Positions 3,251 through 54,413 of a stretch of DNA of 64,000 nt are shown piece after piece. Source of the DNA: an uncultured Syntrophaceae bacterium (GTDB taxonomy: Bacteria; Desulfobacterota; Syntrophia; Syntrophales; UBA6807); assembly GCA_964523565.1 (NCBI GenBank), contig CAZGAK010000001.1, forward strand, positions 3,867 to 67,866, given 5' to 3'. The notes under the pieces were generated by a model, which saw only the letters and a list, made by a program, of their open reading frames with translations, had not been told where the DNA came from and made no database searches. Position 1 is the first letter of the stretch. Every line of letters begins with the position of its first letter. The translations under genes were made by a program, and so were the position numbers.

Positions 3251-4771
3251 ATGAAGAAACAGGGCAAAGTATATATCATCGGTGCGGGGCCGGGTGACCC
3301 GGACCTTATAACAATTCGGGGAGTGGAATGCCTCAAAAGATCCGATGTAATTGTCTATGATTATCTTGTTTCCAGGGATATTCTGAAATATACGAGGAAA
3401 GATGCCCGCTTGATCTATGTCGGGAAAAAGGGTGGCGACCATACGGTGCCTCAGGAAAATCTGAATCAGATTCTTGTGAAAGAGGCATCGGAGGGAAATG
3501 TCGTTGCCAGGCTGAAGGGTGGTGATCCCTTTATCTTTGGAAGAGGGGGGGAGGAGGCCGAGGTCCTTTCCAAGGCGGAAATACCATTTGAGATAATCCC
3601 CGGCGTTACTTCGGCCATAGCTGTTCCTGCCTATGCCGGCATTCCTCTGACCCATCGAAAATATGCGTCTTCCGTTACCTTTGTGACAGGGCATGAAGAT
3701 CCGACGAAGGGCAAGAGCAGTATTGATTGGGAGAACATATCTGCCGTTGGGACCATTGTATTCCTGATGGGGGTAAAGAACCTGACCCATATTGTGACAA
3801 GTCTGATAGAAAATGGGAGGGATCCCGGTACACCCGTTGCCTTGATCAGATGGGGGACAACTTCCTATCAGGAGACGTTGACCGGAACGCTGAGTAGTAT
3901 AGCGGAATTGGCAAAGGAAAAGAACTTTTTGCCACCCGCCATATTTGTCGTGGGAGATGTAGTTAAATTTAGAGATGATCTCAGCTGGTTTGAAAAAAAG
4001 CCCCTTTTTGGAAAGGGAATCATGATTACAAGGCCGGAGGAGCAGTCGGAAGAATTTTCGTCTCTTTTACGTGAAGAGGGAGCGAGGGTTATCCCGTTTC
4101 CCACCATCAAAATCGTTCCTCCTGATCGTTTCGATGATCTGGATCGGGCGATCAAAAACATTGAAAGATATGAATGGATTATATTTACCAGTGCAAATGG
4201 AGCGAAGTTCTTTTTTAATCGCTTTTGGGAATTGGGCAGTGACATACGAGACCTCAAGGGTATTAAAATATGTACAATCGGTCCCGCAACCGCCTCTGCC
4301 ATAGAGATGCTGGGTGTCAAAGTCGATCTTGTCCCTGACGAATATATCTCCGAGGGTGTTGTGGATGCATTTAAGGGGAAAGTAATGCAGGGGAAGAAAG
4401 TGCTTCTGCCCAGGGCTGAAATCGCCAGAGATGTTATCCCCCAGGGTCTTTCGAAAGTGGGTGCACATGTCGATGTTGTAACGTCTTATCGAACTGTCAA
4501 TTCGGGAAAGAATAAGGCAGAGCTTGATGAAATGATGGATCAGAACAAAGTCGATGTGATTACCTTTACAAGTCCGTCAACGGTGACTAATTTTATAGAT
4601 ATAATCGGGAAGGATACAAGACTTCCGGAACATGTAAAGATTGCATGTATAGGGCCGGTGACATTGGATGCAGCAAGAAAGGCAGGCCTGAAAGTTGATA
4701 TCATGCAGGGGCCCTATGTCATTTCCGGCCTGGTAGATGCCATTATAAAGGCATTTGAGAGTGAAGAGTGA
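3251..4771 (+). CDS. cobA-hemD: Bifunctional uroporphyrinogen-III C-methyltransferase / uroporphyrinogen-III synthase
   Basis: The N-terminal roughly 250 aa has the SUMT signature VYIIGAGPGDPDLITIRG...VVARLKGGDPFIFGRGGEE. The C-terminal roughly 250 aa is HemD-like (IFTSANGAKFF, ITFTSPSTV). Total length 506 aa. Confidence 0.9.
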   Translation: MKKQGKVYIIGAGPGDPDLITIRGVECLKRSDVIVYDYLVSRDILKYTRKDARLIYVGKKGGDHTVPQENLNQILVKEASEGNVVARLKGGDPFIFGRGGEEAEVLSKAEIPFEIIPGVTSAIAVPAYAGIPLTHRKYASSVTFVTGHEDPTKGKSSIDWENISAVGTIVFLMGVKNLTHIVTSLIENGRDPGTPVALIRWGTTSYQETLTGTLSSIAELAKEKNFLPPAIFVVGDVVKFRDDLSWFEKKPLFGKGIMITRPEEQSEEFSSLLREEGARVIPFPTIKIVPPDRFDDLDRAIKNIERYEWIIFTSANGAKFFFNRFWELGSDIRDLKGIKICTIGPATASAIEMLGVKVDLVPDEYISEGVVDAFKGKVMQGKKVLLPRAEIARDVIPQGLSKVGAHVDVVTSYRTVNSGKNKAELDEMMDQNKVDVITFTSPSTVTNFIDIIGKDTRLPEHVKIACIGPVTLDAARKAGLKVDIMQGPYVISGLVDAIIKAFESEE

Positions 4772-14313: not shown

Positions 14314-14335
14314 AATGTAACCCCTTTATCACTTA

Positions 14336-14469
14336 TTAGATTCTTTATTCTCAACAACCGAGTCCTTTGAGCAGATATTGAAAGGCGAAAGGCTGAAGGC
14401 TAAGGGCTGAAGGAAAAACCTTTAGCCCTTGGTCCTCATTGCTCAGTCCTTGCGGCTTTGCCGCATTAG
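14336..14469 (+). repeat. Modular repeat family 1, beta core
   Basis: TTAGATTCTTTATTCTCAACAAC..., a heptad-built beta core, then GCGGCTTTGCCGCATTAG. It is nearly identical to the reverse complement of 25251-25398. Confidence 0.9.
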
Positions 14470-21841: not shown

Positions 21842-22044
21842 TTAGAGTCTTTATTCACAACAACTGCGTTTTTTGCGCAGATGCTGGCGGAAAATAAATC
21901 CGAAATTCGAATATCGAAATACGAAACAAATTCGAATATCAAATAACAAAATTTCGAAACAGTTTTGGACATTCGAGTTTAGGGTTTTGATATTGTTTCG
22001 AATTTCGTACTTCGGATTTCGAATTTGCAGCTTTGCTGCCTTAG
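21842..22044 (+). repeat. Modular repeat family 1, gamma core (flip orientation)
   Basis: TTAGAGTCTTTATTCACAACAACTGCGTTTTTTGCGCAGATG, then an AT-rich palindromic gamma core, then GCAGCTTTGCTGCCTTAG. Confidence 0.9.
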
Positions 22045-25254: not shown

Positions 25255-25398
25255 GGCGGCAAAGCCGCAAGGGCTGAGCAATGAGCAATGAGCAATGAGG
25301 ACCAAGGGCTAAAGGTTTTTCCTTCAGCCCTTAGCCTTCAGCCTTTCGCCTTTCAATATCTGCGCAAAGAACGCGGTTGTTGAGAATAGAGATTCTAA
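25251..25398 (-). repeat. Modular repeat family 1, beta core, inverted orientation
   Basis: CTAAGGCGGCAAAGCCGC...CTGCGCAAAGAACGCGGTTGTTGAGAATAGAGATTCTAA. It contains the mrdA stop codon. Confidence 0.9.
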
Positions 25399-25434
25399 TA
25401 AGTACCTTAATTGTAAAGTTCTTGCAAAAATGGC

Positions 25435-25573
25435 AAAAGAATTTGGCTGTAACTTTGCAGACTTGGAAACGTAGGGCAGGGCTTTAGCCCTGCATAAAGC
25501 CCAATGCAAGGCTAAAGCCTTGCCCTACATGCAAGAGGTCAGCACCTCTTTGGTTACGGATTTGCCGCCTTAG
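25435..25573 (+). repeat. Modular repeat family 1, alpha core, left arm missing
   Basis: Carries the alpha core with a 58 nt palindrome (25471-25528) identical to that at 607-664, plus the right arm ...GGATTTGCCGCCTTAG. It ends 10 nt before the rodA ATG. Confidence 0.85.
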
Positions 25574-31529: not shown

Positions 31530-31682
31530 AAATTTGATGGTTTCGTAAAAAGTCAAAAACTCGCTAATATGTCATTCCCGCGAAAGCGGGAATCCAGTAA
31601 TTACACGCAGTTATAGATTCCCGATCAGATCGGGAATGACAAAACGGCAAAAACTCCGACTTTTTACGAACTTGTCAAATTT
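31530..31682 (+). mobile_element. 153 bp MITE-like structured repeat (family 3), complete copy with terminal inverted repeats
   Basis: The TIRs are AAATTTGATGGTTTCGTAAAAAGTC... and ...GACTTTTTACGAACTTGTCAAATTT. Internal hairpins are ATTCCCGC-GAAA-GCGGGAAT and ATTCCCGAT-CAG-ATCGGGAAT. A second, truncated copy lies at 49010-49122. Confidence 0.8.
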
Positions 31683-33737: not shown

Positions 33738-33931
33738 ATATTCTTTATTCTCGACAACTGCGTTTTTTGCGCAGATGTTGGCGGAAAATAAATCCGAAGT
33801 ACGAAATTCGAAACAATATCAAAATCTTAAACTCGAATGTCCAAAACTGTTTCGAAAATTTGTTATTTGACTTCGACGTGAGCTCAGTCGAACGATATTC
33901 GGATTTCGGATTTGCGGCTTTGCCGCTTTAG
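33738..33931 (+). repeat. Modular repeat family 1, gamma core (flop orientation)
   Basis: The left arm ATTCTTTATTCTCGACAACTGCGTTTTTTGCGCAGATG and right arm GCGGCTTTGCCGCTTTAG are in the same orientation as 21842-22044. However, the 79 nt central segment 33790-33868 is the reverse complement of 21941-22019. Confidence 0.9.
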
Positions 33932-35420: not shown

Positions 35421-35624
35421 ATTCTTTATTCTCAACAACTGCGTTTTTTGCGCAGATGTTGGTATCAGCTTATGCGAATAAGACAAAGAATTCTGGTTGC
35501 ACCTTTGCTGCCTTGGAAACGTAGGGCAGGGCTTTAGCCCTGCGTAAAGCCCAATGCAAGGCTAAAGCCTTGCCCTACATGCAAGAGGCCAACACCTCTT
35601 TGGTTGCGGCTTTGCCGCCTCAGG
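35417..35624 (+). repeat. Modular repeat family 1, alpha core, full length
   Basis: TTAGATTCTTTATTCTCAACAACTGCGTTTTTTGCGCAGATG, then the alpha core (palindrome 35521-35578, one substitution), then GCGGCTTTGCCGCCTCAG. Confidence 0.9.
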
Positions 35625-36266: not shown

Positions 36267-36427
36267 CTAAGGCGGCAAAGCCGCAAGGACTGAGCAACGA
36301 GCAATGAGGACTGAGAACTAAAGGCTAAAGGTTTTTCCTTGATCCTTTGTCCTTGTACCTTGCACCTTTTCACTGCTGACACTAAAATCTGCGCAAAAAA
36401 TGCAGTTGTTGAGAATAAAGAATCTAA
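36267..36427 (-). repeat. Modular repeat family 1, delta core, inverted orientation, full length
   Basis: CTAAGGCGGCAAAGCCGC..., then a heptad-built delta core, then ...CTGCGCAAAAAATGCAGTTGTTGAGAATAAAGAATCTAA. It contains the stop codon of the speD-speE fusion. Confidence 0.9.
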
Positions 36428-37525: not shown

Positions 37526-37658
37526 TTCTTTATAAAGGTACAAGGTACAAGGACAAAGGATCAAGGACAAAGGACAAAGGATCAAGGAAAAACCTTTAGC
37601 CTTTAGTTCTCAGTCCTCATTGCTCGTTGCTCAGCCCTTTGCGGCTTTGCCGCATTAG
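37526..37658 (+). repeat. Modular repeat family 1, delta core, left arm reduced to TTCTTTAT
   Basis: AGGTACA AGGTACA AGGACAA AGGATCA AGGACAA AGGACAA AGGATCA AGG..., ending GCGGCTTTGCCGCATTAG. Confidence 0.85.
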
Positions 37659-37693
37659 TCCCTTAAGCGAGAAATTAAATTTTCTTGTAACAG

Positions 37694-37810
37694 CTCAAAA
37701 AACAGGGGCATCATAAAAGGCTCACGCCTGAATTCCTTATTTGGAGTTTACCCGTAAGGGTTATACACTTATTTGGAGTTTACCCGTAAGGGTTTTACCG
37801 TGATTTATTG
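37694..37810 (+). repeat. Repeat family 2 (117 bp) with an internal 32 bp tandem duplication
   Basis: Same sequence as 3128-3212 with a few substitutions. CTTATTTGGAGTTTACCCGTAAGGGTT(A/T)TAC(A/C) is present twice in tandem. Confidence 0.8.
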
Positions 37811-37826
37811 GGCTGATTCATTTTCT

Positions 37827-37945
37827 TTCTTTATAGAGGTACAAGGTACAAGGACAAAGGATCAAGGAAAAACCTTCAGCCTTTAGCCTTTAGTTCTCAG
37901 TCCTCATTGCTCATTGCTCAGCCCTTTGCGGCTTTGCCGCCTCAG
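37827..37945 (+). repeat. Modular repeat family 1, delta core, left arm reduced to TTCTTTAT
   Basis: Same as 37526-37658 but with three fewer AGGNNCA heptads and one extra CCTTTAG unit. It ends GCGGCTTTGCCGCCTCAG. Confidence 0.85.
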
Positions 37946-37957
37946 GTGTCACTATAT

Positions 37958-38044: not shown

Positions 38045-38674
38045 TTATTCCGTTTGAGCAAGGTCCTTTTTCCCTTCGAGAAGCCTGTGGATGACCGTTA
38101 TATTTGTTAAAACGGCCAGCACTATCAACGTCCCCATAAAGATACAGTCAGGACATTCGGGAAAATATCTTCCAATGGGCGCGTTCAGGAGCGAACCGGC
38201 AGAAACCAAAATTAATCTTTCGGGTCGCTGCATCAAGCCGATAACTCTTATACTTCCCAGTGATTCGGCACGGGCCTTTACGTAACTGACCATGACCGAA
38301 CCCAGCAAGGCCAGCATAACCACATAAAACATCCAGCTGTTTTGATAGTAAAAGAGAAGCCCGAAAAATACGAAAAACTCGGCATAACGATCCAGCGTTG
38401 AATCCAGTAAGGCGCCGAACCTGGTTGATTGTCCTGTAAGACGGGCAATGGAACCATCCATTGTATCCGCTATCCCTGATAGCAAGAGCAAAATTCCACC
38501 CATGAAAATGGCCCCGAAGGCATAAAATAATGCCGAAATCAGAGAAAGGCATAATGAAAAGAGGGTGATTGCGTTGGGTGAAACACCTCTGTTAACCAGC
38601 GGTTTCATCCATCTTTCCATAAGAGAATAATACCTCTTAATCATCTGGTGACGCGCTTCAGTAAAATTCATCAT
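38045..38674 (-). CDS. CDP-alcohol phosphatidyltransferase family protein
   Basis: Signature DTMDGSIARLTGQSTRFGALLDSTLDRYAE matches D-x2-DG-x2-AR...G-x3-D-x3-D. The protein is polytopic. Confidence 0.8.
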   Translation of the reverse strand: MMNFTEARHQMIKRYYSLMERWMKPLVNRGVSPNAITLFSLCLSLISALFYAFGAIFMGGILLLLSGIADTMDGSIARLTGQSTRFGALLDSTLDRYAEFFVFFGLLFYYQNSWMFYVVMLALLGSVMVSYVKARAESLGSIRVIGLMQRPERLILVSAGSLLNAPIGRYFPECPDCIFMGTLIVLAVLTNITVIHRLLEGKKDLAQTE

Positions 38675-38693: not shown

Positions 38694-38921
38694 TTATAAC
38701 GTTAGAAAATCGTCTATGGATAAACCGGATTGAGATATTATGGATTTCAGGGTCTTTTGAGGTATGTCTTTCCCTGGATGGTTGGGAATTACAACTCTCC
38801 TTTTGGTTACAGGATTATACCAGATTTCGTGACTCCCCTTTGCCTGGCGATCAAAAACAAATCCCGCCTTTTTAAGTTTCCGTATTACCTTAATCGGGGT
38901 CAAACTTTTCAACTTCGTCAT
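38694..38921 (-). CDS. hicA: HicA-family mRNA interferase toxin
   Basis: 75 aa. VIRKLKKAGFVFDRQAKGSHEIW...IPNHPGKDIPQKTLKSIISQSGL is the typical HicA/YcfA pattern. Confidence 0.85.
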   Translation of the reverse strand: MTKLKSLTPIKVIRKLKKAGFVFDRQAKGSHEIWYNPVTKRRVVIPNHPGKDIPQKTLKSIISQSGLSIDDFLTL

Positions 38922-39172
38922 ATGGCCATCGAGATAGGAATCTTGGCTTCAACGGCGACGTTATCAGCCCTCAAGGCCTTCAATGTTTCGGGGAGGGGAT
39001 CTCCATGTTCAAGGTATGATTCCACAAGCTTCCGAGCTACATCCTGTGCTATCTCCATAGTTTCTGCGACGGTTCTCCCTTGGGCGAGTAACTCAGGCAG
39101 GCATTTACTCGTTGCCAGATAACCTCCCTCCTCCAAGGGTTCAATTGTAATTGATAAGAAGAATTCAGGCAT
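38918..39172 (-). CDS. hicB: HicB-family antitoxin
   Basis: 84 aa from the internal Met (MPEFFLSITIEPLEEGGYLATSKCLPELLAQGRTVAETMEIAQD), which is HicB/UPF0150-like. It overlaps hicA by 4 nt. Confidence 0.7.
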   Translation of the reverse strand: MPEFFLSITIEPLEEGGYLATSKCLPELLAQGRTVAETMEIAQDVARKLVESYLEHGDPLPETLKALRADNVAVEAKIPISMAI

Positions 39173-39342
39173 AATGTTCACCTTTTTTGATTTAATAATT
39201 ATAACAATGGAATAAGAAGAGTAATATTTATACGCCAAGAGAACGCCACAGTCAACAAATTTTAGATTATAGAAATGTCAACAATACTGAGCAGTATCCC
39301 CGGATTTCCCTCGCTGCCGACAGGCAGTCACTGGAAGCATGG

Positions 39343-40245
39343 GTGAAGGGACTGCCGGGACCTTGGATAGGCGCTATGGAAGCAACAATATTCACCGGAT
39401 GGGTGTATGACTTTTTAAAGCCGCACGCCATTGTCCTGAAGGTGGCTCATCCTGCGATGCTGAAGGCCATAACAGCCGCCAAGAAAAAGAACGATCGTGC
39501 CGATGCCGAGAAAATAGCCGATCTGTTACGGGTGAATCTTCTGCCTGAATGCCACATGCTTTCAGAAGAGATTCGTGAACTGCGACGGATATTACGGTAT
39601 CGCAACCATATTGTTCGGACGGCAGTTAAGATGCAGAACAAGATGTCGGGTCTGCTCATGGAAGTTGGTGTCAGCTACAGCAAGAAACGCTTGCACGGCA
39701 AGAAATACTTTCGTGAACTTCTAGAACGAGTCGATGAAATTCCCCCTTCCGTCAAGGAGCTTCTTCAGCTGAGTCGTTCAAGCTACGAGATGTTTCGCTC
39801 TTTCCAGAAGCGGCTTGTTGCAACGCTTCGCACCGACAGCCTGATACGTGATCGGGTACATCGTCTCATGACCATCCCCGGTGTAGGAGAGATAACGGCA
39901 CTGACCTGGGTATTGGAGATCGGCGATCCCGAACTATTATCATCCATTCGTAAGGCAATCAGCTACTGCGGGCTGTGCAGCGCACAAAAAGAATCGGCGG
40001 GCAAGGAGCAGCGAGGCCCCATCTCCAAGAAACGGAACAAACACCTGCAAACCATACTCATTGAAGCCGCAAAGCTTGCACCATACTGGAACGAGCAACT
40101 GGCCATTGTACATGAGCGGGAATCGAAGAAAGGAAACAAAAACAGGGCAACCCTTGCCGTTGCGAGAAAGCTTGTGGCTTACATGCTGGCTGTTGACAGG
40201 AAAGGGAGCGATTTCAAGCTTCCCTCAGAAACGCAAGCAGCCTGA
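39343..40245 (+). pseudogene. IS110-family (DEDD) transposase, 5'-truncated remnant
   Basis: Contains the second half of the DEDD domain (GAMEATIFTGW, KKNDRADAEKIADLL) and the Transposase_20 region (IPGVGEITALTWVLEIGD, SAGKEQRGPISKKRNKHL). The N-terminal GIDxxK block is absent. The frame stays open upstream to 39205 without a start or the missing motif. Confidence 0.7.
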
Positions 40246-40662
40246 AACAGACGCTGTATGAACATATAAATCTGCCGAGATGAAGATCTTCCCGCCGGGC
40301 CTTGCCGTCTGGGGACTGTGCATGCGATAAACGCAATGCAACGATTATAGTGTTTCGAGGCCGGTGGGTTGACCCAAACTCAATCTTCTGTATAGGTCAT
40401 TAAGGATATGGTGTAACGCGAACCTATCCGACCTTGGTACAGCAAATGGATGTCTGGTCGCATACGATCTATTAGTGCGGACCACAAAGAATGAAGAAAA
40501 AGATCGAGTTGAGGCAGATCAACAGAAATAACCGCCGGGAATCCGTCAATCCGGAAGGTCAAGGGAAATCTCCGTTTTCCCCTTGACAAAACTTATCATG
40601 GATGTCCCCGGATTTCTGGTGTCCCCGGATTTCCCCAAATATATGCTATTTCGTGCACACCA

Positions 40663-40696
40663 AACAAAAAAGGCAGAGCCTCACAGACTCTGCCTT
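40663..40696 (-). terminator. Rho-independent terminator after the PEP-CTERM gene
   Basis: AAGGCAGAG (40670-40678) pairs with CTCTGCCTT (40688-40696), followed on the minus strand by a T-run. It lies 32 nt past the stop codon. Confidence 0.7.
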
Positions 40697-40727
40697 TCCT
40701 AATTCAGCGAGTTACACACTCGGGTCG

Positions 40728-41522
40728 TTAGCACTTCCTCCTGAATCCTGCAAGACCGACGATACCCGTCATCAGCAGAACCATCGTCAGGGGCTCGGGG
40801 ACGGAAGGGTTGACTTCTTCCCCGATCTTCTCTTTGACTGCCAGTCCAAAGTCGTCAAAACTCGCGACAACCCAGACAAACGGATTGGTGCCTCCGATAA
40901 CGTTATCTTCACCATATGGTGTGGCTTGGATGGAATCTTCAGGATCATCGCCGAAGTAGTCACGATCGTTAACGAACAGGGCGTTAATCGTATCGACACC
41001 GCTTGCAAGCGCCGCATCCCTTGCATCCTGTACATTCGGAGCTATCTGGGCATAACTGATGGAATCAGCGCCGTCGCCCGTCACGTCTATGACCTGCCGG
41101 GTTCCCTCAAAAGCATTAGTGAAAAGTGGATACCCGTAATTCATGGCTGCGGCCATTTGCGTTCCACCAAAAAAGGGACGGGTAGTGCCAGCGATGGCAT
41201 CTGCAAAAGCATACGAACTAGCCTCGCTGTTAATGTACATCCAATCAAGCGCAAGGGATTGACTGTCAGACCAGTAGACGAGCGATACCGCAATTGAACC
41301 GTAGGTGCCAGCGGTCGTGATGGAGTTAATGATGCTGGCATCCCTGAACGCCGCTTCGTAACCGCCCCTGATAAGGTCGAAGTCAGTAGCGTCTACACTG
41401 CCAGAAACATCACAGAGTAACAAGAGTTCAAGGTCGACAGAAACGGCCGCGGCTTGCTGCGGTACTGCCAAGCAAAGAGCGAGGGCGATCGCGAGCATTA
41501 CTGAAAATATTTTCTTTTTCAT
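40728..41522 (-). CDS. Secreted DUF1194 (VWA-like) domain protein with a C-terminal PEP-CTERM sorting signal
   Basis: Signal peptide MKKKIFSVMLAIALALCLAVPQQAAA. DUF1194-like start LELLLLCDVSGSVDATDFDLIRGGYEAAF. C-terminus VPEPLTMVLLMTGIVGLAGFRRKC, giving PEP, a TM helix and a basic tail. Confidence 0.7.
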   Translation of the reverse strand: MKKKIFSVMLAIALALCLAVPQQAAAVSVDLELLLLCDVSGSVDATDFDLIRGGYEAAFRDASIINSITTAGTYGSIAVSLVYWSDSQSLALDWMYINSEASSYAFADAIAGTTRPFFGGTQMAAAMNYGYPLFTNAFEGTRQVIDVTGDGADSISYAQIAPNVQDARDAALASGVDTINALFVNDRDYFGDDPEDSIQATPYGEDNVIGGTNPFVWVVASFDDFGLAVKEKIGEEVNPSVPEPLTMVLLMTGIVGLAGFRRKC

Positions 41523-41601
41523 TCTTTTTACCTCCTTTCCTTTTAAAATATATTTTGTTTAATGGTAAATTAAGCAAAAATGATGCCATTTGCATAACCA
41601 T

Positions 41602-41623
41602 TTGATATTACAAACAATATCAA
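41602..41623. promoter_or_regulatory. Perfect 8-6-8 palindrome upstream of the PEP-CTERM gene (candidate operator)
   Basis: TTGATATT-ACAAAC-AATATCAA, located 80-100 nt upstream of the start codon at 41522. Confidence 0.3.
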
Positions 41624-41945
41624 AAATGCTATTCCGATTACTGCTTTCATTTTGTAAACGTATCCGACAGTTTTTTGCGATTTTTATGAAAATTTGCGGG
41701 GCATAAAAAGATAACTGCTTATATTAATTGACAGAACAGCCCAAAAAAGGCCGTAACAAAAAGTGTCGGCATGCTTTACAGCTTTCGGCTTGTTTTACAA
41801 ATCGAACATTAAAACTCTCATTGTTCTTTAAAAAAAAAGAAAAAAAGGGAAAAAAGGATTGAAGGATTGGAGGCTAAATCATAAATAAGTCGAAAGTGGA
41901 CCTCTTTCCCCCATTCTTTTCCAGTAGGGCCCGTTCCCCGAACGA

Positions 41946-43360
41946 AGTAATTCGGGGACGTTGTTGACTATGTTGACTTTCTATTTTTCCGATCTACTGA
42001 TAATTTTTGAGATGGCAGATGTTGATACTCCCAGTTGACGTGCTATCTCTGCAAATGGAATTCCATACTGTTCCGCTAAACTGATCGCTAACTTCGACCT
42101 TATCTTTGATATTGATCCCCTGCGGCTTCCGTATTTAAGTTCTTTAATATTAATGTTTTCCTGCTTGCATGCCTTTTCTATGAATTGCTCCACCTTTTTC
42201 AGGCGGTCTTGTCCCAAAAATTGATGTCTCACCTTTTGATCAACCTCTTGTAACAGATAATCGACGAATTCTCCGCCACCCAATATCCGCTCATCAGAAC
42301 TCGCACGCATTCCTGAAAATCGCATAGTCTTGACTTGAGTCCAACCGCCCATAGATCGAATCAAGCCTCCGCCAACTAACTCCGGCCGTCTGCCTTGATT
42401 AATTCCTTCTTGAATAAATTCCCGGTAGCAACTTCTGGCCACTCCTTCTGTTTTGCCAAACCACCTTAATATGTAATCACGATCTTGCCAATCGTTTGTT
42501 CTTTTACCCATTACAGTCGCATGCCCACACCAGCGGTAGATGTCCAGTTCCGATAAACTCTTCACAAGTTTTGCCCGCAGTGGATTTAAATGAATATAGC
42601 GGACTAACTCCTTAAAATAAACATCCTCTTCACAAATTATCGATTTAGAGTAATTCGGAGTAATTCGGGGACGTTGTTGACTATGTTGACTTTCTATTTT
42701 TCCGATCTACTGATAATTTTTGAGATGGCAGATGTTGATACTCCCAGTTGACGTGCTATCTCTGCAAATGGAATTCCATACTGTTCCGCTAAACTGATCG
42801 CTAACTTCGACCTTATCTTTGATATTGATCCCCTGCGGCTTCCGTATTTAAGTTCTTTAATATTAATGTTTTCCTGCTTGCATGCCTTTTCTATGAATTG
42901 CTCCACCTTTTTCAGGCGGTCTTGTCCCAAAAATTGATGTCTCACCTTTTGATCAACCTCTTGTAACAGATAATCGACGAATTCTCCGCCACCCAATATC
43001 CGCTCATCAGAACTCGCACGCATTCCTGAAAATCGCATAGTCTTGACTTGAGTCCAACCGCCCATAGATCGAATCAAGCCTCCGCCAACTAACTCCGGCC
43101 GTCTGCCTTGATTAATTCCTTCTTGAATAAATTCCCGGTAGCAACTTCTGGCCACTCCTTCTGTTTTGCCAAACCACCTTAATATGTAATCACGATCTTG
43201 CCAATCGTTTGTTCTTTTACCCATTACAGTCGCATGCCCACACCAGCGGTAGATGTCCAGTTCCGATAAACTCTTCACAAGTTTTGCCCGCAGTGGATTT
43301 AAATGAATATAGCGGACTAACTCCTTAAAATAAACATCCTCTTCACAAATTATCGATTTA
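41946..43360. repeat. Perfect tandem duplication, 2 x 702 bp joined by an 11 bp junction (period 713 bp)
   Basis: By my reading, 41946-42647 is identical base for base to 42659-43360. The junction GAGTAATTCGG (42648-42658) partly re-copies the first 10 nt of the unit. Confidence 0.85.
41981..42565 (-). pseudogene. Duplicated 3' fragment of the HUH/Y1 transposase-like gene, lacking the catalytic N-terminus
   Basis: The 194 aa translation is identical to the C-terminal 194 aa of the 42694-43665 product. There is no HUH motif. Confidence 0.75.
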
Positions 43361-43665
43361 TAACGATTTTGAAACAAATGACCGTGGCGACGATGGCGCC
43401 GGTTATAGGATAACGCATATCCGGTGAGTAGCCTCCTCATATAGAAGGATAGACCAGAAGAAGAGCTTTTCAACAATATGTGAGCATGATTAGACATCAA
43501 CGACCAGGCATAAATTGCCGTACCGGTATCAGAGGCGATTTGTCCCATTCGGGAGACAAAATCTTCTCGATCAGTTGTATCATCGACGATCCTGCGTTTT
43601 TCAATCCCCCGCACGATCACATGATGCAGCGTTCCAGGGGCATCAAGCCGGGCTTGTCGTGGCAT
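42694..43665 (-). CDS. HUH (Y1) transposase-like protein (IS200/RAYT-related) with a C-terminal DnaA-domain-IV-like HTH
   Basis: N-terminus GTLHHVIVRGIEKR and HUH motif SNHAHILL, with a catalytic Tyr context VRYIHLNPLRA. The C-terminus RSKLAISLAEQYGIPFAEIARQLGVSTSAISKI is a helix-turn-helix. Confidence 0.7.
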   Translation of the reverse strand: MPRQARLDAPGTLHHVIVRGIEKRRIVDDTTDREDFVSRMGQIASDTGTAIYAWSLMSNHAHILLKSSSSGLSFYMRRLLTGYALSYNRRHRRHGHLFQNRYKSIICEEDVYFKELVRYIHLNPLRAKLVKSLSELDIYRWCGHATVMGKRTNDWQDRDYILRWFGKTEGVARSCYREFIQEGINQGRRPELVGGGLIRSMGGWTQVKTMRFSGMRASSDERILGGGEFVDYLLQEVDQKVRHQFLGQDRLKKVEQFIEKACKQENINIKELKYGSRRGSISKIRSKLAISLAEQYGIPFAEIARQLGVSTSAISKIISRSEK

Positions 43666-43940
43666 TCGTTACCTTCTCATTAAACGATTGACCGAATGCT
43701 AACATAATTATTCAAGCTTGTCAACTACGTCCCTTTTATTCCCCCTTTTATTCCCGGTGGGGCTATAAGTTAAAAGAAGCAGACGATTATGTGAGGCTGC
43801 ATTATTCGCAGGTAAGTAAGATAGATTCAAGGGGGGGCAAAAGACAAGACCTTACCCCCTTTATCCTTCCGACGCAGAAAAAGATACATCTTGACATTCG
43901 GTCCATATTTGGTATTGTATGCGGACCGGGGGTGGTGAAA

Positions 43941-44219
43941 ATGAAAATAACAAAGGATATAAAGCCAGTCACTTATTTAAAATCCAGAGCTGCGGATTTG
44001 TTAAACCAAATTAACGAAACCCATCGACCTGTAATTATAACCCAAAATGGGGAACCCAGAGCTGTTCTTCAGGATCCTGAAAGTTACGAAAATATGCGAA
44101 ATGCAATTGGTTTATTGAAACTGATATCTCAAGGTGAAAGTGATGTGCGGAATGGAAGGGTAAAGTCACAAGAGGAAGTATTTAAAGATATTGAGAATTC
44201 TCTGAAAGAAAAACTGTAA
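43941..44219 (+). CDS. Phd/YefM-family antitoxin
   Basis: 92 aa from ATG 43941. HRPVIITQNGEPRAVLQDPESYE is the Phd/YefM core. The stop codon overlaps the toxin start (TAATG). Confidence 0.8.
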   Translation: MKITKDIKPVTYLKSRAADLLNQINETHRPVIITQNGEPRAVLQDPESYENMRNAIGLLKLISQGESDVRNGRVKSQEEVFKDIENSLKEKL

Positions 44220-44542
44220 TGAATCCAAAGTATAAGATAATTTGGACCAGTGTTGCGGAAAATGATTTAAAAAATATCATTGAATACATTTCAGTGGATA
44301 GCCCACAAAATGCCATAAAAATATTGGAAAAGATAAAGAAAAAAGCTTCAAATCTTTATACCCTTTCCGAAAGGGGTCGCATCGTGCCAGAGCTTCAAGG
44401 CCAGGGCATATTGCAATACAGGGAGTTGGTAATTCCACCATGGCGATTAATATACAGAATTGATGAGCGAAAAATATATGTATTGTCTGTAATTGATTCT
44501 CGGCAGAATGTTGAGGATATCCTATTAACCCGATTGATTTAG
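44219..44542 (+). CDS. RelE/ParE-family toxin
   Basis: 107 aa (IIWTSVAENDLKNIIEYI...RELVIPPWRLIYRIDERKIYVLSVIDSRQ). Confidence 0.8.
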   Translation: MNPKYKIIWTSVAENDLKNIIEYISVDSPQNAIKILEKIKKKASNLYTLSERGRIVPELQGQGILQYRELVIPPWRLIYRIDERKIYVLSVIDSRQNVEDILLTRLI

Positions 44543-44700
44543 AAGCAATTGGCGGAAAGCTTGAGAAAGCTTGGGGTCAAATCTTTATTCTTTAATATTC
44601 TCACCGCGAATCCTTACTATAAATGCCAAATCCCCGTAAACTCAATGATCAAGATTTGATCCCAGGACCCCCCCCCAGGGCTTGGGGGATGTGCTAATGG

Positions 44701-45000
44701 TCAAGCGGCTGTCACTCGAACTTTTACTTCTTTCTCCAGGCGGTCAGACAATGCAATTTTAGCCATTTCAGTGTCGTAATGAGTTTGAATGCCTGTCCAA
44801 AATTCAACCGACATGCCAAAGTAACGGGCAAGGCGAAGCGCGGTGTCAGCACTGATGCCCCTTTCACAACGGACAATCTTGTTGATCCGCATGGCCGGAA
44901 CTCCTATGTCTTTAGCGAGCCGGTACTGGCTGATGCCCATCGGCTGTAAAAATTCCTCAAGCAAGATTTCGCCGGGATGGGTTGGCGGAAAGTCTCTCAT
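44701..45000 (-). CDS. higA: HigA-family antitoxin (XRE-type HTH)
   Basis: HPGEILLEEFLQPMGISQYRLAKDIGVPAMRINKIVRCERGISADTALRLARYFG is the classical HigA pattern. Confidence 0.85.
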   Translation of the reverse strand: MRDFPPTHPGEILLEEFLQPMGISQYRLAKDIGVPAMRINKIVRCERGISADTALRLARYFGMSVEFWTGIQTHYDTEMAKIALSDRLEKEVKVRVTAA

Positions 45001-45009
45001 AATATTACC

Positions 45010-45291
45010 TCAATGATAATCCACTATTTCGACGTTATACACGCCGTTTGTTTGCCATTCAAAGCAAATACGCCATTTATCGTTAATCCGAATACTGTGT
45101 TGACCTCGTCGATCTTCCTTCAACGCTTCCAGCCGGTTTGCCGGAGGAACCCGAAGGTCGTTAAGCTCTGCGGCTTTATGGAGCATAATCAGTTTCCGTT
45201 CGGCAACTCGCTGGATGTCTTGAGGTAGTTTTTTGGAAAAACGCCCATGAAAAATCTTTTCAGTCTCTCTGCATTTGAATGCCTTGATCAT
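45010..45291 (-). CDS. higB: HigB-family toxin (RelE superfamily, plasmid maintenance system killer type)
   Basis: From the internal Met: MIKAFKCRETEKIFHGRFSKKLPQDIQRVAERKL...RGQHSIRINDKWRICFEW. It lies upstream of higA, which is the usual toxin-first order. Confidence 0.85.
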   Translation of the reverse strand: MIKAFKCRETEKIFHGRFSKKLPQDIQRVAERKLIMLHKAAELNDLRVPPANRLEALKEDRRGQHSIRINDKWRICFEWQTNGVYNVEIVDYH

Positions 45292-45491
45292 GAAAATATA
45301 ATAACCCAAAATGATAATATCGTCAAGCGTTATTAGTCAAAATTGGGAACGGGTTCACATTTAATGATCGCTGATCCAATTTCCACACACGGACAAATGA
45401 TACTGAAACAAGTTCAGCCTTCGGCGTGAGCTCAATCGAACGGTTCGGCTGCAAATTCCCCGTGCTGAGTTAGTAAAACCGAAACCTCTTT

Positions 45492-49009: not shown

Positions 49010-49122
49010 AAATTTGACGGTATCGTAAAAAGTCAAAAATACGCGAACTGGTCATTCCCGCGAAAGCGGGAATCCAGTGATTACACGTAGTTATGGATTC
49101 CCGATCAGGTCGGGAATGACAA
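49010..49122 (+). mobile_element. MITE-like repeat family 3, 3'-truncated copy
   Basis: Shares the left TIR and both internal hairpins with 31530-31682. It diverges after GGGAATGACAAA, so the right TIR is missing. Confidence 0.75.
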
Positions 49123-49500: not shown

Positions 49501-50730
49501 ATGAAAATATTACACACCTCCGACTGGCATATCGGCCGCACTTTATACGGCCGCAAGCGATACGCGGAATTCGAGGCATTCCTGAACTGGCTGGCCGGTC
49601 TTATTGATGATGAAGACATAGATGTCCTGCTTGTGGCAGGGGACGTGTTTGACAACAGCACCCCAAGCAATCGTGCACAGGAACTCTATTACCGGTTCCT
49701 CTGCCGTGTAGCGGCCTCTCCAAAACGCCATGTGGTGGTGACGGCAGGGAATCATGATTCGCCGTCTTTCTTGAATGCGCCAAAGGAACTCCTGAAATTT
49801 CTGAATGTCCATGTCGTAGGGAGCGCATCCGACTCTCCGGATGACGAACTGATCGTGCTTACCGGGCCCGATCAGGAGCCCCTGCTCATTGTCTGTGCCG
49901 TCCCGTATCTCAGAGACCGTGATATACGCACGGCTGAAGCCGGAGAGAGCGTCGAGGACAAGGAGAGGAAGATCGTTGAGGGAATCAGGACTCATTACCG
50001 GATGGTCTGTGAATTGGCCGAACAAAAACGCGCCATGCTGGATAATTCTGTTCCGATTGTCGCAATGGGACATTTGTTTGCCGCGGGCGGCGAGACCGTT
50101 GACGGTGACGGGGTGCGTGAACTGTATATCGGCTCTCTTGCGCAAGTAAGAAGGGATGTGTTCCCCGAATGTATTGACTACGTTGCACTCGGGCATCTTC
50201 ATATTCCTCAAAGGGTTGGCGGTTCGGACTTCATACGCTACTGCGGTTCTCCCCTGCCCATTGGCTTCGGGGAGGCGCAGCAGGAAAAGGGCATGGTTCT
50301 TGTGGAGTTTTCGAGTAATGCACCCAATGTTACCAATATTCCCGTACCCATATTCCAGGAATTGAAGATTCTGCACGGGGATTGGCAAACCATTGCCCGG
50401 AAGATCGACATACTGAAGTCCGAAGGAAGCAATGCCTGGCTGGAGATAGTATATGATGGAGACGAGATAGCCGGTGATTTACGCGAGCGATTGGATGAGG
50501 CAATCGAAAAAACCGGCCTGGAGATCCTCCGCGTTAAGAACAATCGTGTGCTGGAACGGGCTATGAGTGGGATGGATGCGGAAGAAACACTCGATGATCT
50601 GGACGTAACCGACGTGTTCACGCGCTGCCTGGAATCGCATGAAATACCAGAGGATCAGCGCCCGGCGCTTTTGAATGCATATCAGGAAATCATTGTAGCT
50701 CTGAACGAAGCGGACCCGATGGCTGAATAG
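49501..50730 (+). CDS. sbcD: Exonuclease SbcD (Mre11-type nuclease)
   Basis: MKILHTSDWHIG, VAGDVFD, GNHDS and GHLH phosphoesterase motifs. Confidence 0.9.
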   Translation: MKILHTSDWHIGRTLYGRKRYAEFEAFLNWLAGLIDDEDIDVLLVAGDVFDNSTPSNRAQELYYRFLCRVAASPKRHVVVTAGNHDSPSFLNAPKELLKFLNVHVVGSASDSPDDELIVLTGPDQEPLLIVCAVPYLRDRDIRTAEAGESVEDKERKIVEGIRTHYRMVCELAEQKRAMLDNSVPIVAMGHLFAAGGETVDGDGVRELYIGSLAQVRRDVFPECIDYVALGHLHIPQRVGGSDFIRYCGSPLPIGFGEAQQEKGMVLVEFSSNAPNVTNIPVPIFQELKILHGDWQTIARKIDILKSEGSNAWLEIVYDGDEIAGDLRERLDEAIEKTGLEILRVKNNRVLERAMSGMDAEETLDDLDVTDVFTRCLESHEIPEDQRPALLNAYQEIIVALNEADPMAE

Positions 50731-50741
50731 GAGAACATGGC

Positions 50742-53700
50742 ATGAGGATACTTGGTGTTCGATTTAAGAATCTTAATTCTCTCATCGGGGAATGGAATAT
50801 CGATTTCACCCACCCGGAGTATTTGTCCGACGGCATATTCGCCATCACCGGCCCTACCGGCGCAGGAAAGACGACCATTATGGACGCTATATGCCTCGGG
50901 CTTTACGGAAGGACGCCCCGCCTTGACAAGGTTACGAAAAGCAGCAACGAGATCATGTCGCGCCAGACAGGCGAATGCTTTGCGGAAGTTGCATTTGAGA
51001 CACAGAAGGGCCGTTACCGTTGCCACTGGAGCCAGCACCGTGCCCGGAGAAGGTCTGATGGCGAGTTACAACAGGCAAAGCATGAAATAGCCGATGCAGA
51101 AAACGAGACAGTCCTGGAATCAAGAATAACCCAGGTTAATGAATTTATCGAGAAGGCCACGGGTATGGACTTTGAGCGTTTTACCCGTTCGATGCTGCTC
51201 GCCCAGGGCGGATTTGCAGCCTTTCTTCAGGCGTCCCCCGATAAGCGAGCCCCCATCCTTGAGCAAATTACCGGCACCGAAATCTACAGTCGTATATCCG
51301 TAAAAGTGCATGAACGCAGTAGAGAAGAACGTGAAAAGCTGGAATTGCTGCAATCTGAACTGAAAGGAATCCAAGTATTAAGCGCAGATGAGGAAAGGGA
51401 CCTGCAAACGGGCCTGAAGGAAGCGCAGTTACATGAAGCGGAGCGGAGCACTCAGTTCGACAGCCTTCGAAAGGCTGCTGCCTGGCTTGAAACCGTGACT
51501 GCGCTGGGAAAGGGGATTGGCGATCTGGATAAACTCACGGAGGATCTTGAGAAACGTTCTCAGGTGTTCGCGCCGGAAAGAATACGGCTGGAAAAATCAC
51601 GGAGGGCTCTCGGTCTGGAGGGAGATTACCGGGGAGTGGTCGCCTTACGGGATCTGCAGAAAAATGAGACAAAGGAACTCAATGACGCTCTCGCGGCCCT
51701 GCCGCTTAAGAATAAGGCCTGTGAAGATGCGGTGACTATCAAAAAGACCGCTGAAACCGGTCTTGATGAAACACGAAAACGGCAGCAGTCCGAAGCGGAT
51801 GTCATCAAAAAGGTTCGCGAACTCGATGCCAGACTGAGCGAGCAGAAAAAGCAGATAGAGGAGAAGGATAAGTCGATATCATTGGCGGAGAAGCAGGGCA
51901 AAGCGTATACCGTGAATATCGATAAGGCTTCGCAGGCCCTGCAAAAATCACAGGATGGCCTGAAAGCCGTCCAGGATTACCAGACAAAGCAAGCCGTCGA
52001 TGCCGCGCTTTTGACCGACCTGGCTGCAATCTCCAGGGTATTCATCTCACTTCGCGATCGTGAAGAAAGGAATATCAAGGTTCAAGAAACGCGTGCCGCA
52101 GCTGCCAGGGAAAAAGAGGCTGCCATTGCCGCGCACAAAAAGATAGAGGCCGATCACGGGAAATCCCACAAGGAATTCGAGAAGCATCAAGGCGACCTGA
52201 AGGTTCTGACTGACAAGGCTGCATCCATCCTCAAGGGACGTGAAATAGGCCGGTGGCACCAGGATCATAGTGTCCTGAAAGAACGCGAGGGTCTCCTGAG
52301 GCAGGCGGGTGACACCATTGAGCGGAGGAACACGACATCCGCAGCATTGGACAAACTGAACACGAATCTTGAAGTATTGAAGGCCGGTCATGAGAAGCTC
52401 TCCGGGGAGATCACAACCTGTACCGAGAAAAAAGCGCTCCTGGAGGGAACTGTTGCAACTATGGAAACACAGGTGACCCTCCTGAGCCGCATTCGGGACC
52501 TTGAGGAGGAAAGGATGCGGCTTGAAGACGGCATGCCATGCCCCCTGTGTGGTGCCCTCGAGCATCCCTATGCAAAAGGCAATGTACCTGAATTAAACAA
52601 GGTGGAAAAAGAATTGAAGGATGCCAGGGTCACGTTCAAAAAGGTATCTGATGAGTTGAGCAAGCTGGAAACGGAGCACGCCAGGATGCTGGTGGAAATC
52701 GGGCATGTTGAAAAAGACAAGGATGAAAAGAAGGCTGCGTTGGAAGTCGATGATAAGCAATGCACCGACAATCTGTTAAAACTGAATATCGCGGCAGGTA
52801 CTGAAGAACGGGCCGGGAAAGTACGCGAAGCGATTGCAGACGCTCAATCGAAGATCGCTGAAATATCCGGCATTATCGTTGCCGCCGAAGAATTAAACCG
52901 AAAGGAGAAGGCGTCGCACAAAAACCTGGAGAAGTTAAGGATGCTTCTGGAAAGCTCGGGCAAGGCCTTGCATGATGCCAGGCATAACGTTGATAAGGCC
53001 GGCCGTGAGCATGAGCGGCTGATTAAGGAGGACGAAGCGCTTGGCAAGGAGCTTGAGAAGGCCCGTGCAGATGCGCTGAAGGATGTTGAGCCCTTTGGTA
53101 TTAGACAGATACCATCAACCGATCTCGACACCATATTGAAAGACCTTACGGAACGCAGAGATATCTGGCAGGCAAAGCTCGACGAAAAAAACGAATTTGA
53201 GAAAAAGATCCATAGCCTGGAAGCCGGTATCGATAAGGACAAAGCCCTGTTGGCAAAGCTCGAACATGATCTAAAAACGAGCCGCAAGGATCGCGAGGGT
53301 CTGCTGCGGCAACATGCGTCCCTGGGTACTTCACGCCGCGAATTGTACGGTGAAAAGAATACCGACCAGGAGGAGAAACGCCTGGCTGACGCAGTGGATC
53401 AGGCAGGTAAGGTTTTAGAAAAAGCACGGGAAGAACACGCCAAGGTGGAAAAAGCACTCAACTCACTGAAAGAGAAAAGAGACGATCTGGAAAAAAAGAC
53501 AGGCAAACGGGCGATTGACCTGCTACAGGCGGAACAAAACCTGACTGAGCGAATAAAGAAAACCGGGTTTGGTGACGAAACCGACTATTTGTCTGCGTGC
53601 CTGAGCGAAGAAGAACGGGAAGGGCTCGCACAACAGGAAAAGGTTCTGATCAGGGAGAAAACGGAGCTGGACGCCCGCAAGAAGGATAAGTCGGCAGCCC

Positions 53701-54413
53701 TCGCGGCTGAGCGTGAGAAAAACCTGACGGATCAACCGCTGGAAACGGTCGAGAAAGATATCGACACCTGTGATTCGGACTTGAAACGGATAAGGATCGA
53801 CATCGGAGGCATGATAAAGATGCTGAGCGAAAACGAAAAACAAAGGGAAAAGCAGCAGGTTCGCATAAAGAACATTGAAGCCCGGAAAAAGGAATGCGTG
53901 CGGTGGGATGACCTGCATCAACTCATCGGTTCAGCCGATGGAAAAAAATTCAGGAACTTTGCACAGGGCCTGACGTTTGAGATGATGACAACACATGCCA
54001 ACCGCCAACTCAGGAAAATGACGGACCGCTATCTGCTCATACGCGACGTATCACAACCGCTGGAACTGAATGTCATCGATAATTATCAGGCAGGCGAAAT
54101 CCGATCTACGAAAAACCTCTCCGGCGGCGAAAGCTTTATCGTGAGCCTTGCTCTGGCGCTTGGTCTTTCTCAGATGGCCAGCCGAAATGTACGGGTGGAT
54201 TCGCTCTTTCTCGATGAAGGATTCGGAACGCTCGACGACGACGCCCTCGAAACGGCCTTGGAGACTCTTGCGGGACTGCAGCAGGACGGCAAGCTCATCG
54301 GTGTTATATCCCATGTCACTGCACTCAAGGAACGCATCGGCACACAGATACAGGTGATCCCAGAAACAGGGGGGCGAAGCAGCTTGAGCGGCCCCGGATG
54401 CCGGAGGATTTAA
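50742..54413 (+). CDS. sbcC: Exonuclease SbcC (Rad50-type SMC-like ATPase)
   Basis: 1223 aa. Walker A GPTGAGKTT, a very long coiled-coil with a central zinc hook (CPLCG), signature LSGGESF, and Walker B LFLDEGFGTLD. Confidence 0.9.
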   Translation: MRILGVRFKNLNSLIGEWNIDFTHPEYLSDGIFAITGPTGAGKTTIMDAICLGLYGRTPRLDKVTKSSNEIMSRQTGECFAEVAFETQKGRYRCHWSQHRARRRSDGELQQAKHEIADAENETVLESRITQVNEFIEKATGMDFERFTRSMLLAQGGFAAFLQASPDKRAPILEQITGTEIYSRISVKVHERSREEREKLELLQSELKGIQVLSADEERDLQTGLKEAQLHEAERSTQFDSLRKAAAWLETVTALGKGIGDLDKLTEDLEKRSQVFAPERIRLEKSRRALGLEGDYRGVVALRDLQKNETKELNDALAALPLKNKACEDAVTIKKTAETGLDETRKRQQSEADVIKKVRELDARLSEQKKQIEEKDKSISLAEKQGKAYTVNIDKASQALQKSQDGLKAVQDYQTKQAVDAALLTDLAAISRVFISLRDREERNIKVQETRAAAAREKEAAIAAHKKIEADHGKSHKEFEKHQGDLKVLTDKAASILKGREIGRWHQDHSVLKEREGLLRQAGDTIERRNTTSAALDKLNTNLEVLKAGHEKLSGEITTCTEKKALLEGTVATMETQVTLLSRIRDLEEERMRLEDGMPCPLCGALEHPYAKGNVPELNKVEKELKDARVTFKKVSDELSKLETEHARMLVEIGHVEKDKDEKKAALEVDDKQCTDNLLKLNIAAGTEERAGKVREAIADAQSKIAEISGIIVAAEELNRKEKASHKNLEKLRMLLESSGKALHDARHNVDKAGREHERLIKEDEALGKELEKARADALKDVEPFGIRQIPSTDLDTILKDLTERRDIWQAKLDEKNEFEKKIHSLEAGIDKDKALLAKLEHDLKTSRKDREGLLRQHASLGTSRRELYGEKNTDQEEKRLADAVDQAGKVLEKAREEHAKVEKALNSLKEKRDDLEKKTGKRAIDLLQAEQNLTERIKKTGFGDETDYLSACLSEEEREGLAQQEKVLIREKTELDARKKDKSAALAAEREKNLTDQPLETVEKDIDTCDSDLKRIRIDIGGMIKMLSENEKQREKQQVRIKNIEARKKECVRWDDLHQLIGSADGKKFRNFAQGLTFEMMTTHANRQLRKMTDRYLLIRDVSQPLELNVIDNYQAGEIRSTKNLSGGESFIVSLALALGLSQMASRNVRVDSLFLDEGFGTLDDDALETALETLAGLQQDGKLIGVISHVTALKERIGTQIQVIPETGGRSSLSGPGCRRI

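Follow-up and report, generated by a model that had tools for sequence, protein, structure and literature searches.

The 64,000-nucleotide (nt) stretch of DNA analyzed here (hereafter the window; positions 3,867 to 67,866 of contig CAZGAK010000001.1, from an uncultured Syntrophaceae bacterium) carries on its minus strand an intact gene for a 323-residue protein with an N-terminal Y1/HUH transposase domain and a putative C-terminal helix-turn-helix (HTH) (42694–43665). Based on its sequence, this gene is classed as a TIRYT and the unit that it forms with inverted repeats of ~22 nt at its ends as a TIRtron, both names being those of Di Nocera et al. 2013 (PMC3733652). Quentin et al. 2018 (PMC6006769) place such genes in TnpA_REP subclass 2.1, which equals RAYT group 1 of Bertels, is found in roughly 15% of sequenced strains, and is marked by a C-terminal domain of the Bac_DnaA_C/HTH_23/HTH_28 type, a Y---NP motif and the lack of repetitive extragenic palindromic (REP) sequences. 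The 3′ part of the gene, its terminal repeat and a few nucleotides of flank are present twice in perfect tandem, and it is this duplication, together with its counterparts in related elements, that we describe.

The preliminary description of the window had called the gene intact and of the HUH/Y1 type, in full agreement with the match of its product to Pfam PF01797 (Y1_Tnp) over residues 15–121 (49.3 bits against a gathering cut-off of 23; E 6.7e-13). The HUH motif, H60-A-H62, is invariant in 28 relatives and aligned with the HUH of IS200-type TnpA structures. A single-sequence search against solved structures gave no match for the protein; when a family profile was used (residues 42–135), Y119 aligned with the catalytic Y115 of Escherichia coli TnpA_REP (4er8). 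The residues of the segment Y119-I-H-L-N123-P124 are all invariant among the 28 family members and fit the Y---NP signature of TnpA_REP class 2, so that Tyr119 is predicted to be the catalytic residue. Y102, part of an invariant FQNRY motif, was considered for this role and ruled out, as both the 4er8 profile alignment and the signature point to Y119. The length of the protein and its C-terminal layout agree with TIRYT/subclass 2.1, with sub-threshold scores for the HTH itself: HTH_23 reached 23.2 bits at residues 289–321, just below the cut-off of 24.6, and Bac_DnaA_C 16.5 bits on the orphan fragment described below, far under its cut-off of 31.5. Scores also remained below the cut-offs of NCBIfam NF047646 REP_Tyr_transpos (62.1 vs. 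80, that is, below equivalog level) and transpos_IS200 (23.6 vs. 55 bits). A promoter-like site on the minus strand (43696–43724; TTGACA, 17-nt spacer, TAGCAT, with TG) matches the consensus at 10 of 12 positions, a consensus match only, and its −35 box lies inside the 5′ repeat. Apart from the duplication, the 64-kb window holds no second copy of the gene.

To define the ends of the element, we used 80 relatives (L008–L087; 45–65% identity) obtained by scanning species-representative genomes. They span Desulfobacterota, Nitrospirota, Chlorobiota, Methylomirabilota and other phyla, with several diverged copies per metagenome-assembled genome (MAG). Just 3′ of the stop codon the relatives share the conserved sequence (TCAAC...GTCAAC)AACGTCCCC, and its reverse complement, GGGACGTT..., lies 55–100 nt upstream of the start codon in most of the loci that have it. 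Counting the window, the upstream (5′) motif was present in 73 of 81 loci and the downstream (3′) motif in 59 of 81, the latter 2–25 nt past the stop, or ~85–150 nt past it in several Chlorobiaceae/Chlorobium loci. The motifs are thus conserved on both sides of the gene and form terminal inverted repeats around it. When conservation was counted position by position over 130 ends, ~22 positions per end proved conserved, with the information reaching zero 4 nt outside GTCCC. In the window, the 3′ repeat GGGGACGTTGTTGACTATGTTGA occurs on the plus strand beside the native flank (41954–41976) and, in identical form and at an offset of 713, behind the intact gene copy (42667–42689). The 5′ repeat (43712–43733, minus strand; TCAAGCTTGTCAACTACGTCCC on the plus strand) matches the 3′ repeat at 18 of 23 positions.

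These features resemble those of published TIRtrons: a Y1/HUH core with HUH and Y---NP motifs in a protein of ~320 residues, a C-terminal region laid out like an HTH of the HTH_23/Bac_DnaA_C type (with the sub-threshold scores given above), no REP hairpins, and terminal inverted repeats that start with GGGGAC and lie at a near-constant distance from the coding sequence. They differ in that the family consensus, GGGGACGT..., fits the published GGGGWSAS at positions 1–6 but not at positions 7–8 (G, T), a match of 6/8; since Di Nocera et al. 2013 (PMC3733652) describe that motif as common to only "some" repeats, it is not strictly defining. No empty TIRtron site was found, the source genome being covered over 64 kb. 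A solo sequence at 38120–38141, CACTATCAACGTCCCCATAAAG, resembles the outer half of the terminal repeat and lies apparently inside or beside a CDP-alcohol phosphatidyltransferase gene; its 10-mer CAACGTCCCC is expected ~0.1 times per 64 kb.

Exact comparison of the window with itself showed that 41946–42647 and 42659–43360 are two copies, offset by 713, of one 702-nt sequence (0 mismatches), and that the identity breaks off abruptly at either end of both copies. The preliminary description, which had warned that mismatches might have been overlooked, was correct on this point, and also in stating that the 11 nt between the copies repeat the start of the unit: the filler, GAGTAATTCGG (42648–42658), consists of G followed by AGTAATTCGG, the third occurrence of the 10 nt with which the unit starts. 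In the gene-sense (minus) strand the junction reads ...AACGTCC / CCGAATTACT / CCGAATTACT / C / TAAATCGATAA..., the bases after C being TAAATCG. Each 702-nt unit is made up of 8 outer flank nucleotides that are not conserved, the terminal inverted repeat of the 3′ end, a short spacer that leads from this repeat to the stop, and codons 103–323. In gene sense, 42659–43360 is the upstream copy and 41946–42647 the downstream one, next to the native flank. The latter contains an orphan coding remnant on the minus strand (41981–42647) of codons 103–323, i.e. 221 codons, and the stop, which lacks both the HUH motif and a promoter and has no counterpart of the promoter-like site of the intact gene. The 194 codons given for it in the preliminary description need correction, as this number counts only from the first in-frame start, a GTG at 42565 (194-residue open reading frame (ORF), 41981–42565).

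The outer breakpoint, 41945/41946, lies 9 nt outside the 3′ repeat, and the inner one falls after codon 102 (Tyr102), between the HUH motif and Tyr119. Because the catalytic residue is Y119 and not Y102, the apparent coincidence of a breakpoint directly after the catalytic tyrosine is void. Microhomology is nearly nil at either jump. The plus-strand sequence that follows the inner breakpoint, TAACGATTTTGA (43361–43372), shares 8 of 11 positions with the repeat core GACGTTGTTGA, a likeness (~p = 0.05 allowing for offsets) that we considered too weak to treat the site as a pseudo-end of the repeat, and of which no use was made. Rfam gave no match across 41000–44600, and the window contains no second large tandem or near-identical repeat.

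The outer breakpoint had been placed in the loop of a hairpin in the preliminary description, and this was borne out: TCCCCGAA/CGAAGTAA/TTCGGGGA (41935–41958) forms an 8-bp stem with an 8-nt loop that contains 41945/41946. DNA folding in a 46-nt context gave ~−8.9 kcal/mol (z −1.9 to −2.1), with 7–11 of 200 shuffles as stable, and a search of the window found this single occurrence. The right arm consists of 3 flank nucleotides and the outermost 5 nt of the repeat (GGGGA), and the left arm, TCCCCGAA, is flank; as the left arm lies outside the duplicated unit, the junction copy (42638–42683) has no hairpin. Among the 130 repeat ends (the window's own two counted), a stem of at least 6 bp was present at the equivalent place in 1 other, and shuffled flanks gave 8-bp stems at 0.3%. 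The hairpin is thus near-absent at the repeat ends of relatives and was rejected as a recognition structure conserved in the family. It is best regarded as a local accident, in which the repeat terminus pairs with a chance flank, and it may have favoured the event at this particular locus by exposing the site. The inner breakpoint also lies in a loop; the hairpin concerned is a weak one of 4+4 bp that scores no better than its shuffles (z −0.1 to −0.5).

The same locus is represented in other assemblies. The exact 323-residue protein was found on 12 contigs of these, and a neighbouring gene retrieved further contigs; a neighbouring 451-residue protein of the window is not on record in the searched collections. 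Nine independent sample assemblies of the same population (ENA MEGAHIT ERZ27248895, ERZ27248897, ERZ27248920, ERZ27248937, ERZ27248939, ERZ27248954 and ERZ27248965; JGI 3300028276; Logan SRR8437278) hold a single copy with the native 3′ flank ...GTCCCCGAATTACTTCGTTCGGGG.... One single-copy contig is 100% identical to the window across 9.7 kb save for the missing 713 nt, JGI contig L093 is 100% identical across 12.9 kb, and comparison of the window with short-read contigs gave zero indels over 18 kb; the window runs beyond the matching MEGAHIT contig. Since nine other sample assemblies hold one copy with the native flank, the single copy is interpreted as the ancestral, widespread state and the duplication as derived and, so far, private to this assembly. 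This also agrees with the initial view that zero divergence means either a very recent event or an artefact. A 1286-nt MEGAHIT contig, L007 (ERZ27248937 k141_738999; window 41738–43733), ends at the last base of the 5′ repeat (43733), which suggests sequence heterogeneity from the repeat edge onwards in that sample, be it a variable unit number, another flank or a junction. L090 (JGI 3300028169, from window 43234) and L093 (JGI 3300028193, from 42819) start within the TIRYT gene, not at the duplication breakpoints.

The outer edge of the repeat, where the breakpoint of the window lies, is a site of tandem duplication in many relatives. These carry duplications of 6–30 nt astride the edge, some of them nested and some in 3–5 copies, as exemplified by CCCCTTTG x2 (L016), CCCAAACT x2 (L015), ACGTCCCCTAATTT x2 (L031) and a 10-nt unit x3 (L085). 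With fixed criteria, edge duplications were detected in 20 of 130 repeat ends compared with 62 of 4500 random positions in the same loci (binomial p = 2e-15), and test windows shifted by 40–200 nt inward or outward gave 1–3 per 125–130. After reduction to the unduplicated state, their native outer limits all lie between +6 and +13 nt from GTCCC on its outer side, most often at +7 and +9/10, even though the criteria permitted +2 to +33. The 5′ end of the element in the window has its own example: a 12-nt unit, CCCTTTTATTCC, repeated 2.1 times astride the outer edge of the repeat (43731–43755; Tandem Repeats Finder, 100% identity), has its limit at +9/10 and is fixed, as it is present in 12 of the 12 other loci that reach past the edge. 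Moreover, units of different length at one end share an outer limit, as in L071 (12, 21 and 18 nt), L019 (26 and 9), L026 (12, 28 and 9), L040 and L083. The 10/11-nt and 702-nt units of the window behave alike, since both start at 41946, a limit of +9 inside the +6 to +13 range of the family.

Larger duplications occur as well. In L049 (2894–5327) a 161-nt fragment made of the 5′ repeat, the leader and 20 codons precedes two complete tandem elements of 96.7% identity, and each copy bears the same 7–8 nt of outer flank. L079 (2845–3054) and L031 (3001–3387) have similar 5′ fragments with periods of 156 and 168 nt, respectively, and solo 5′ fragments are present in L041 (1212–1341), L069 (888–1110) and L060 (1657–2093). 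Beside full TIRYT genes in other MAGs, partial 5′ copies comprise the repeat, the leader and the first 19–73 codons. The N-terminal coding motif PGTLHHV is encoded by a repeat-like sequence, GGGACGCTG, close to the end point of many 5′ fragments. The event in the window agrees fully with this family series and differs from it solely in its zero divergence.

Arrays of the same kind exist in contigs of other origin. When only the micro-duplicated portion of the junction was used for a scan, three unrelated JGI contigs came up (L098:107–130, L099:960–1015 and L100:856–1015), which carry (G)AGTAATTCGG in 2–5 copies directly against an inverted-repeat pair, GGGGACAG..., with four GAATTTTCCC units on its other side; these are gene-less pairs of the GGGGAC type, GGGGACAGACGG..., and the 25-mer GAGTAATTCGGAGTAATTCGGGGAC of the window (42648–42672) recurs in them. 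We take these arrays to show that another repeat subfamily behaves in the same way. That the unit itself is identical is probably due to chance helped by the conserved ...TTNGGGGAC terminus, given which only ~6 non-conserved bases need agree. A shared mobile end was considered as the source of this 24-mer match and set aside, coincidence being probable.

HUH enzymes nick DNA, remain linked to the 5′ phosphate through a phosphotyrosine, and leave a 3′-OH able to prime synthesis. Keeping in mind the recurrently used endpoint, the two unit lengths that start from it, the templated junction and the scant microhomology, we infer that the TIRYT protein set a strand discontinuity at the repeat edge, and we favour, with confidence about evenly balanced against doubt, a real and very recent event that was triggered there by a TIRYT-dependent nick or stall. 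The re-copied segment would have extended from a fixed site, 9 nt beyond the 3′ repeat, into the element as far as codon 103, with an intact element followed by a promoter-less 3′ fragment as the outcome. In such a scheme, repeat-bound TIRYT would create the discontinuity a few bases outside, either by nicking a specific site and staying on the 5′ end or by acting as a tight roadblock; synthesis starting or ending there would then be re-joined or re-primed out of register, with the extra 10–11 nt added in a short round and the 702 nt in a long one. The common start of the two units at 41946 would follow from this. In one version the HUH domain would nick the strand 5′-flank/AGTAATTCGG-GGGACGTTG-3′ at the slash and stay on the 5′ end, the 3′-OH of the flank would prime strand-displacement synthesis into the element, and the enzyme-bound 5′ end would be re-joined too early, such that rounds of ~10 nt and 702 nt would yield flank-U-...TTTA-(G)U-U-... 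(U being the short unit). In the other, a polymerase copying outward would run off at the nick or stall at the bound protein, and would re-prime upstream twice.

The preliminary description had suggested the participation of the HUH enzyme through aberrant cleavage and joining. Its involvement gains support from the pile-up of duplications at +6 to +13 of the relatives' repeat edges, but a simple one-step cleavage-joining reaction between sister strands was rejected, as it predicts GAATTACT joined directly to TAAATCG and is contradicted by the 11-nt templated filler. Several observations weigh against a TIRYT-dependent event. Copy number and junction are those of the assembled sequence, not of raw reads; a junction 34-mer was not found in JGI metagenome contigs or IMG/VR, and the orphan ORF, in its 194-residue GTG or 176-residue ATG version, is not recorded as a called gene in any other assembly of the collection. 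The position of the nick outside the repeat is deduced from sequence patterns, the outer limits of the relatives are spread over 8 nt and show no single fixed distance, and the scheme accounts neither for the extra G in the filler nor for the absence of any sequence shared by the joined 3′ ends. A bound-protein roadblock without nicking could also yield the enrichment at the edge and, to our knowledge, no TIRYT has been studied biochemically or experimentally.

A more specific proposal, which is possible and which we advance tentatively, is that TIRYTs are active nickases in vivo that cut each strand ~6–13 nt outside the repeat, about one helical turn from GTCCC, with the 3′-OH priming synthesis inward and premature re-joining leaving nested tandems that start at the nick. 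If so, their products would range from 6–30-nt units through partial copies of 150–700 nt to whole-element tandems, the window showing an event of zero divergence. On this reading, the duplications at the repeat edges would provide the first footprint from which to tell where this uncharacterised class of enzymes cleaves, and they would hint that HUH elements with inverted-repeat ends can take a replicative "copy-out" route. The predicted cut would fall in the strand 5′-flank-GGGGACGTTG-3′, ~6–13 nt upstream of GGGAC (the GTCCC boundary on the opposite strand), and would depend on Tyr119.

The principal alternative is replication slippage or serial template switching promoted by the hairpin and in no need of a transposase, in which a strand dislodged in the loop would re-anneal upstream by 10 nt and then by 702 nt. 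Bacteria commonly undergo spontaneous tandem duplications, which are unstable, serial slippage typically leaves a templated filler, and the outer breakpoint does lie in the loop of a real 8-bp hairpin and the distal one in a loop as well. The distal hairpin, however, is indistinguishable from shuffled sequence, there is almost no microhomology to guide either jump, and relatives without a hairpin show the same edge-anchored duplications, so that what these cases have in common is the repeat edge and not the hairpin; we consider slippage unlikely. It is improbable, in our judgement, that the organism has one copy and no junction, the duplication being an artefact of library or assembly (chimeric reads, end-to-end merging of overlapping contigs, or gap filling). 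The copies are perfectly identical, they occur in one assembly only, the junction is missing from the JGI and IMG/VR data as said above, and the source assembly of the window is not in the searched collections, all of which speaks for an artefact. Against this, the filler is non-random, being another copy of a repeat-edge unit in an arrangement that recurs in relatives assembled by many groups, and the outer breakpoint is in the middle of the family's range. A contig merger would, in addition, require two contig ends 702 nt apart and invented bases, and the window shows neither a further duplication of this sort nor, over the 18 kb compared with short-read contigs, any indel. An artefact from a nanopore adapter was entertained on the grounds that GAACGAAGTA matches 10 nt of an adapter, and was dropped in view of the same unit arrays in Illumina-era JGI contigs and of the absence of indels.

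Lastly, the junction could be real and yet not chromosomal as a rule, if it came from a 713-nt circular by-product closed by the HUH enzyme between the nick site and a pseudo-site in the gene, or from a minority subpopulation, and was threaded once into the chromosome by a loop-resolving assembler. A circle and a tandem duplication produce the same loop in an assembly graph, and the sister samples have one copy in all of their unitig-style (MEGAHIT k141) assemblies. Circular single-strand intermediates are formed by Y1 transposases of the IS200/IS605 family, according to a passage in Quentin et al. 2018 (PMC6006769). Direct evidence for such a circle is nevertheless nil, single-strand circles are poorly captured by standard libraries, and the 11-nt filler would still need explaining, which makes this origin quite improbable.

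Comparison with known systems helps to place the proposed TIRYT-dependent event. REPtrons with their RAYT (E. coli TnpA_REP, 4er8) have the same catalytic core and, likewise, a single-copy, domesticated-looking gene with inverted flanking sequences; here, in contrast, GTAG-tagged REP palindromes are absent from the flanks of the gene and an extra C-terminal region of ~190 residues ends in a putative HTH. The TnpA proteins of IS200/IS605 elements (IS608, ISDra2) share the HUH/Y1 chemistry, the 5′-phosphotyrosine intermediate and cleavage sites a short distance from the recognised end structure, but these elements have subterminal hairpins in place of inverted terminal repeats, and excise and insert precisely, without duplications. 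Rolling-circle initiators of the pC194/M13 Rep type are known for illegitimate recombination at their nick site, with rearrangements that share one constant end. There, too, an HUH nick fixes one endpoint, and aberrant termination or re-joining at an unrelated or pseudo-site sets the other; those cases concern plasmid and phage origins and are mostly deletions, whereas here a chromosomal transposase-like gene underwent duplication with a templated filler. Tandem duplications by template switching or microhomology are similarly recent, perfect and unstable and have short templated insertions at their junctions, and differ from the present one by its virtual lack of microhomology and by an endpoint used recurrently across an element family.

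Both the gene and the inverted repeats around it are of a class already described, and the duplication is a private structural variant, probably neutral and transient and with no evident function at this locus. The apparent novelty lies in how sharply nested tandem duplications cluster along the outer edge of the repeats in the family as a whole, a pattern of which the window is a zero-age example: neither Di Nocera et al. 2013 (PMC3733652) nor Quentin et al. 2018 (PMC6006769) gives an account of tandem duplications at repeat edges or of partial element duplications, and the word "tandem" is absent from the latter. Cumulatively, the 130 ends from 80 relatives and this locus point to a defined position outside the repeat where strands repeatedly break or stall, and this pattern can serve as a lead to what TIRYTs do and where they cleave. 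The same process would provide local sequence amplification beside TIRYT genes, and the short arrays and truncated "transposase" fragments found there are likely the element's own products and not independent insertions.

The TIRtron lies in an accessory-looking island (38700–45400) which also contains an IS110-family transposase (39343–40245), a DUF1194 protein with a PEP-CTERM-like tail (40728–41522), and the Phd/ParE (43791–44542) and HigB/HigA (44701–45309) pairs. A HicA-like toxin is found further left in the island, and SbcCD downstream of it at 49501–54413. The window also contains dispersed repeats, and those of 100–200 nt do not match the flanks of the TIRYT gene. Neither do the double palindromes tagged by GTAG...CTAC, GTAGGGCAGGGCTTTAGCCCTGC...GCAAGGCTAAAGCCTTGCCCTAC, whose copies of ~90% identity are at ~600–680, 25475–25555 and 35520–35600, and no REP flanks the gene; these palindromes are of a REP/REPIN-like kind, and the RAYT to which they belong would be a classical one encoded elsewhere in the genome. 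Three further families of dispersed short repeats have copies of 86–96% identity, namely a palindromic GTCATTCCCGCGAAAGCGGGAATCC... unit (31570–31640 and 49050–49120), AAGGAC/AAGGCT-rich arrays (14331–14445, 25289–25403, 36267–36369 and 37534–37946), and an AT-rich inverted pair of the TTCGAA type (21896–22019 and 33790–33913).

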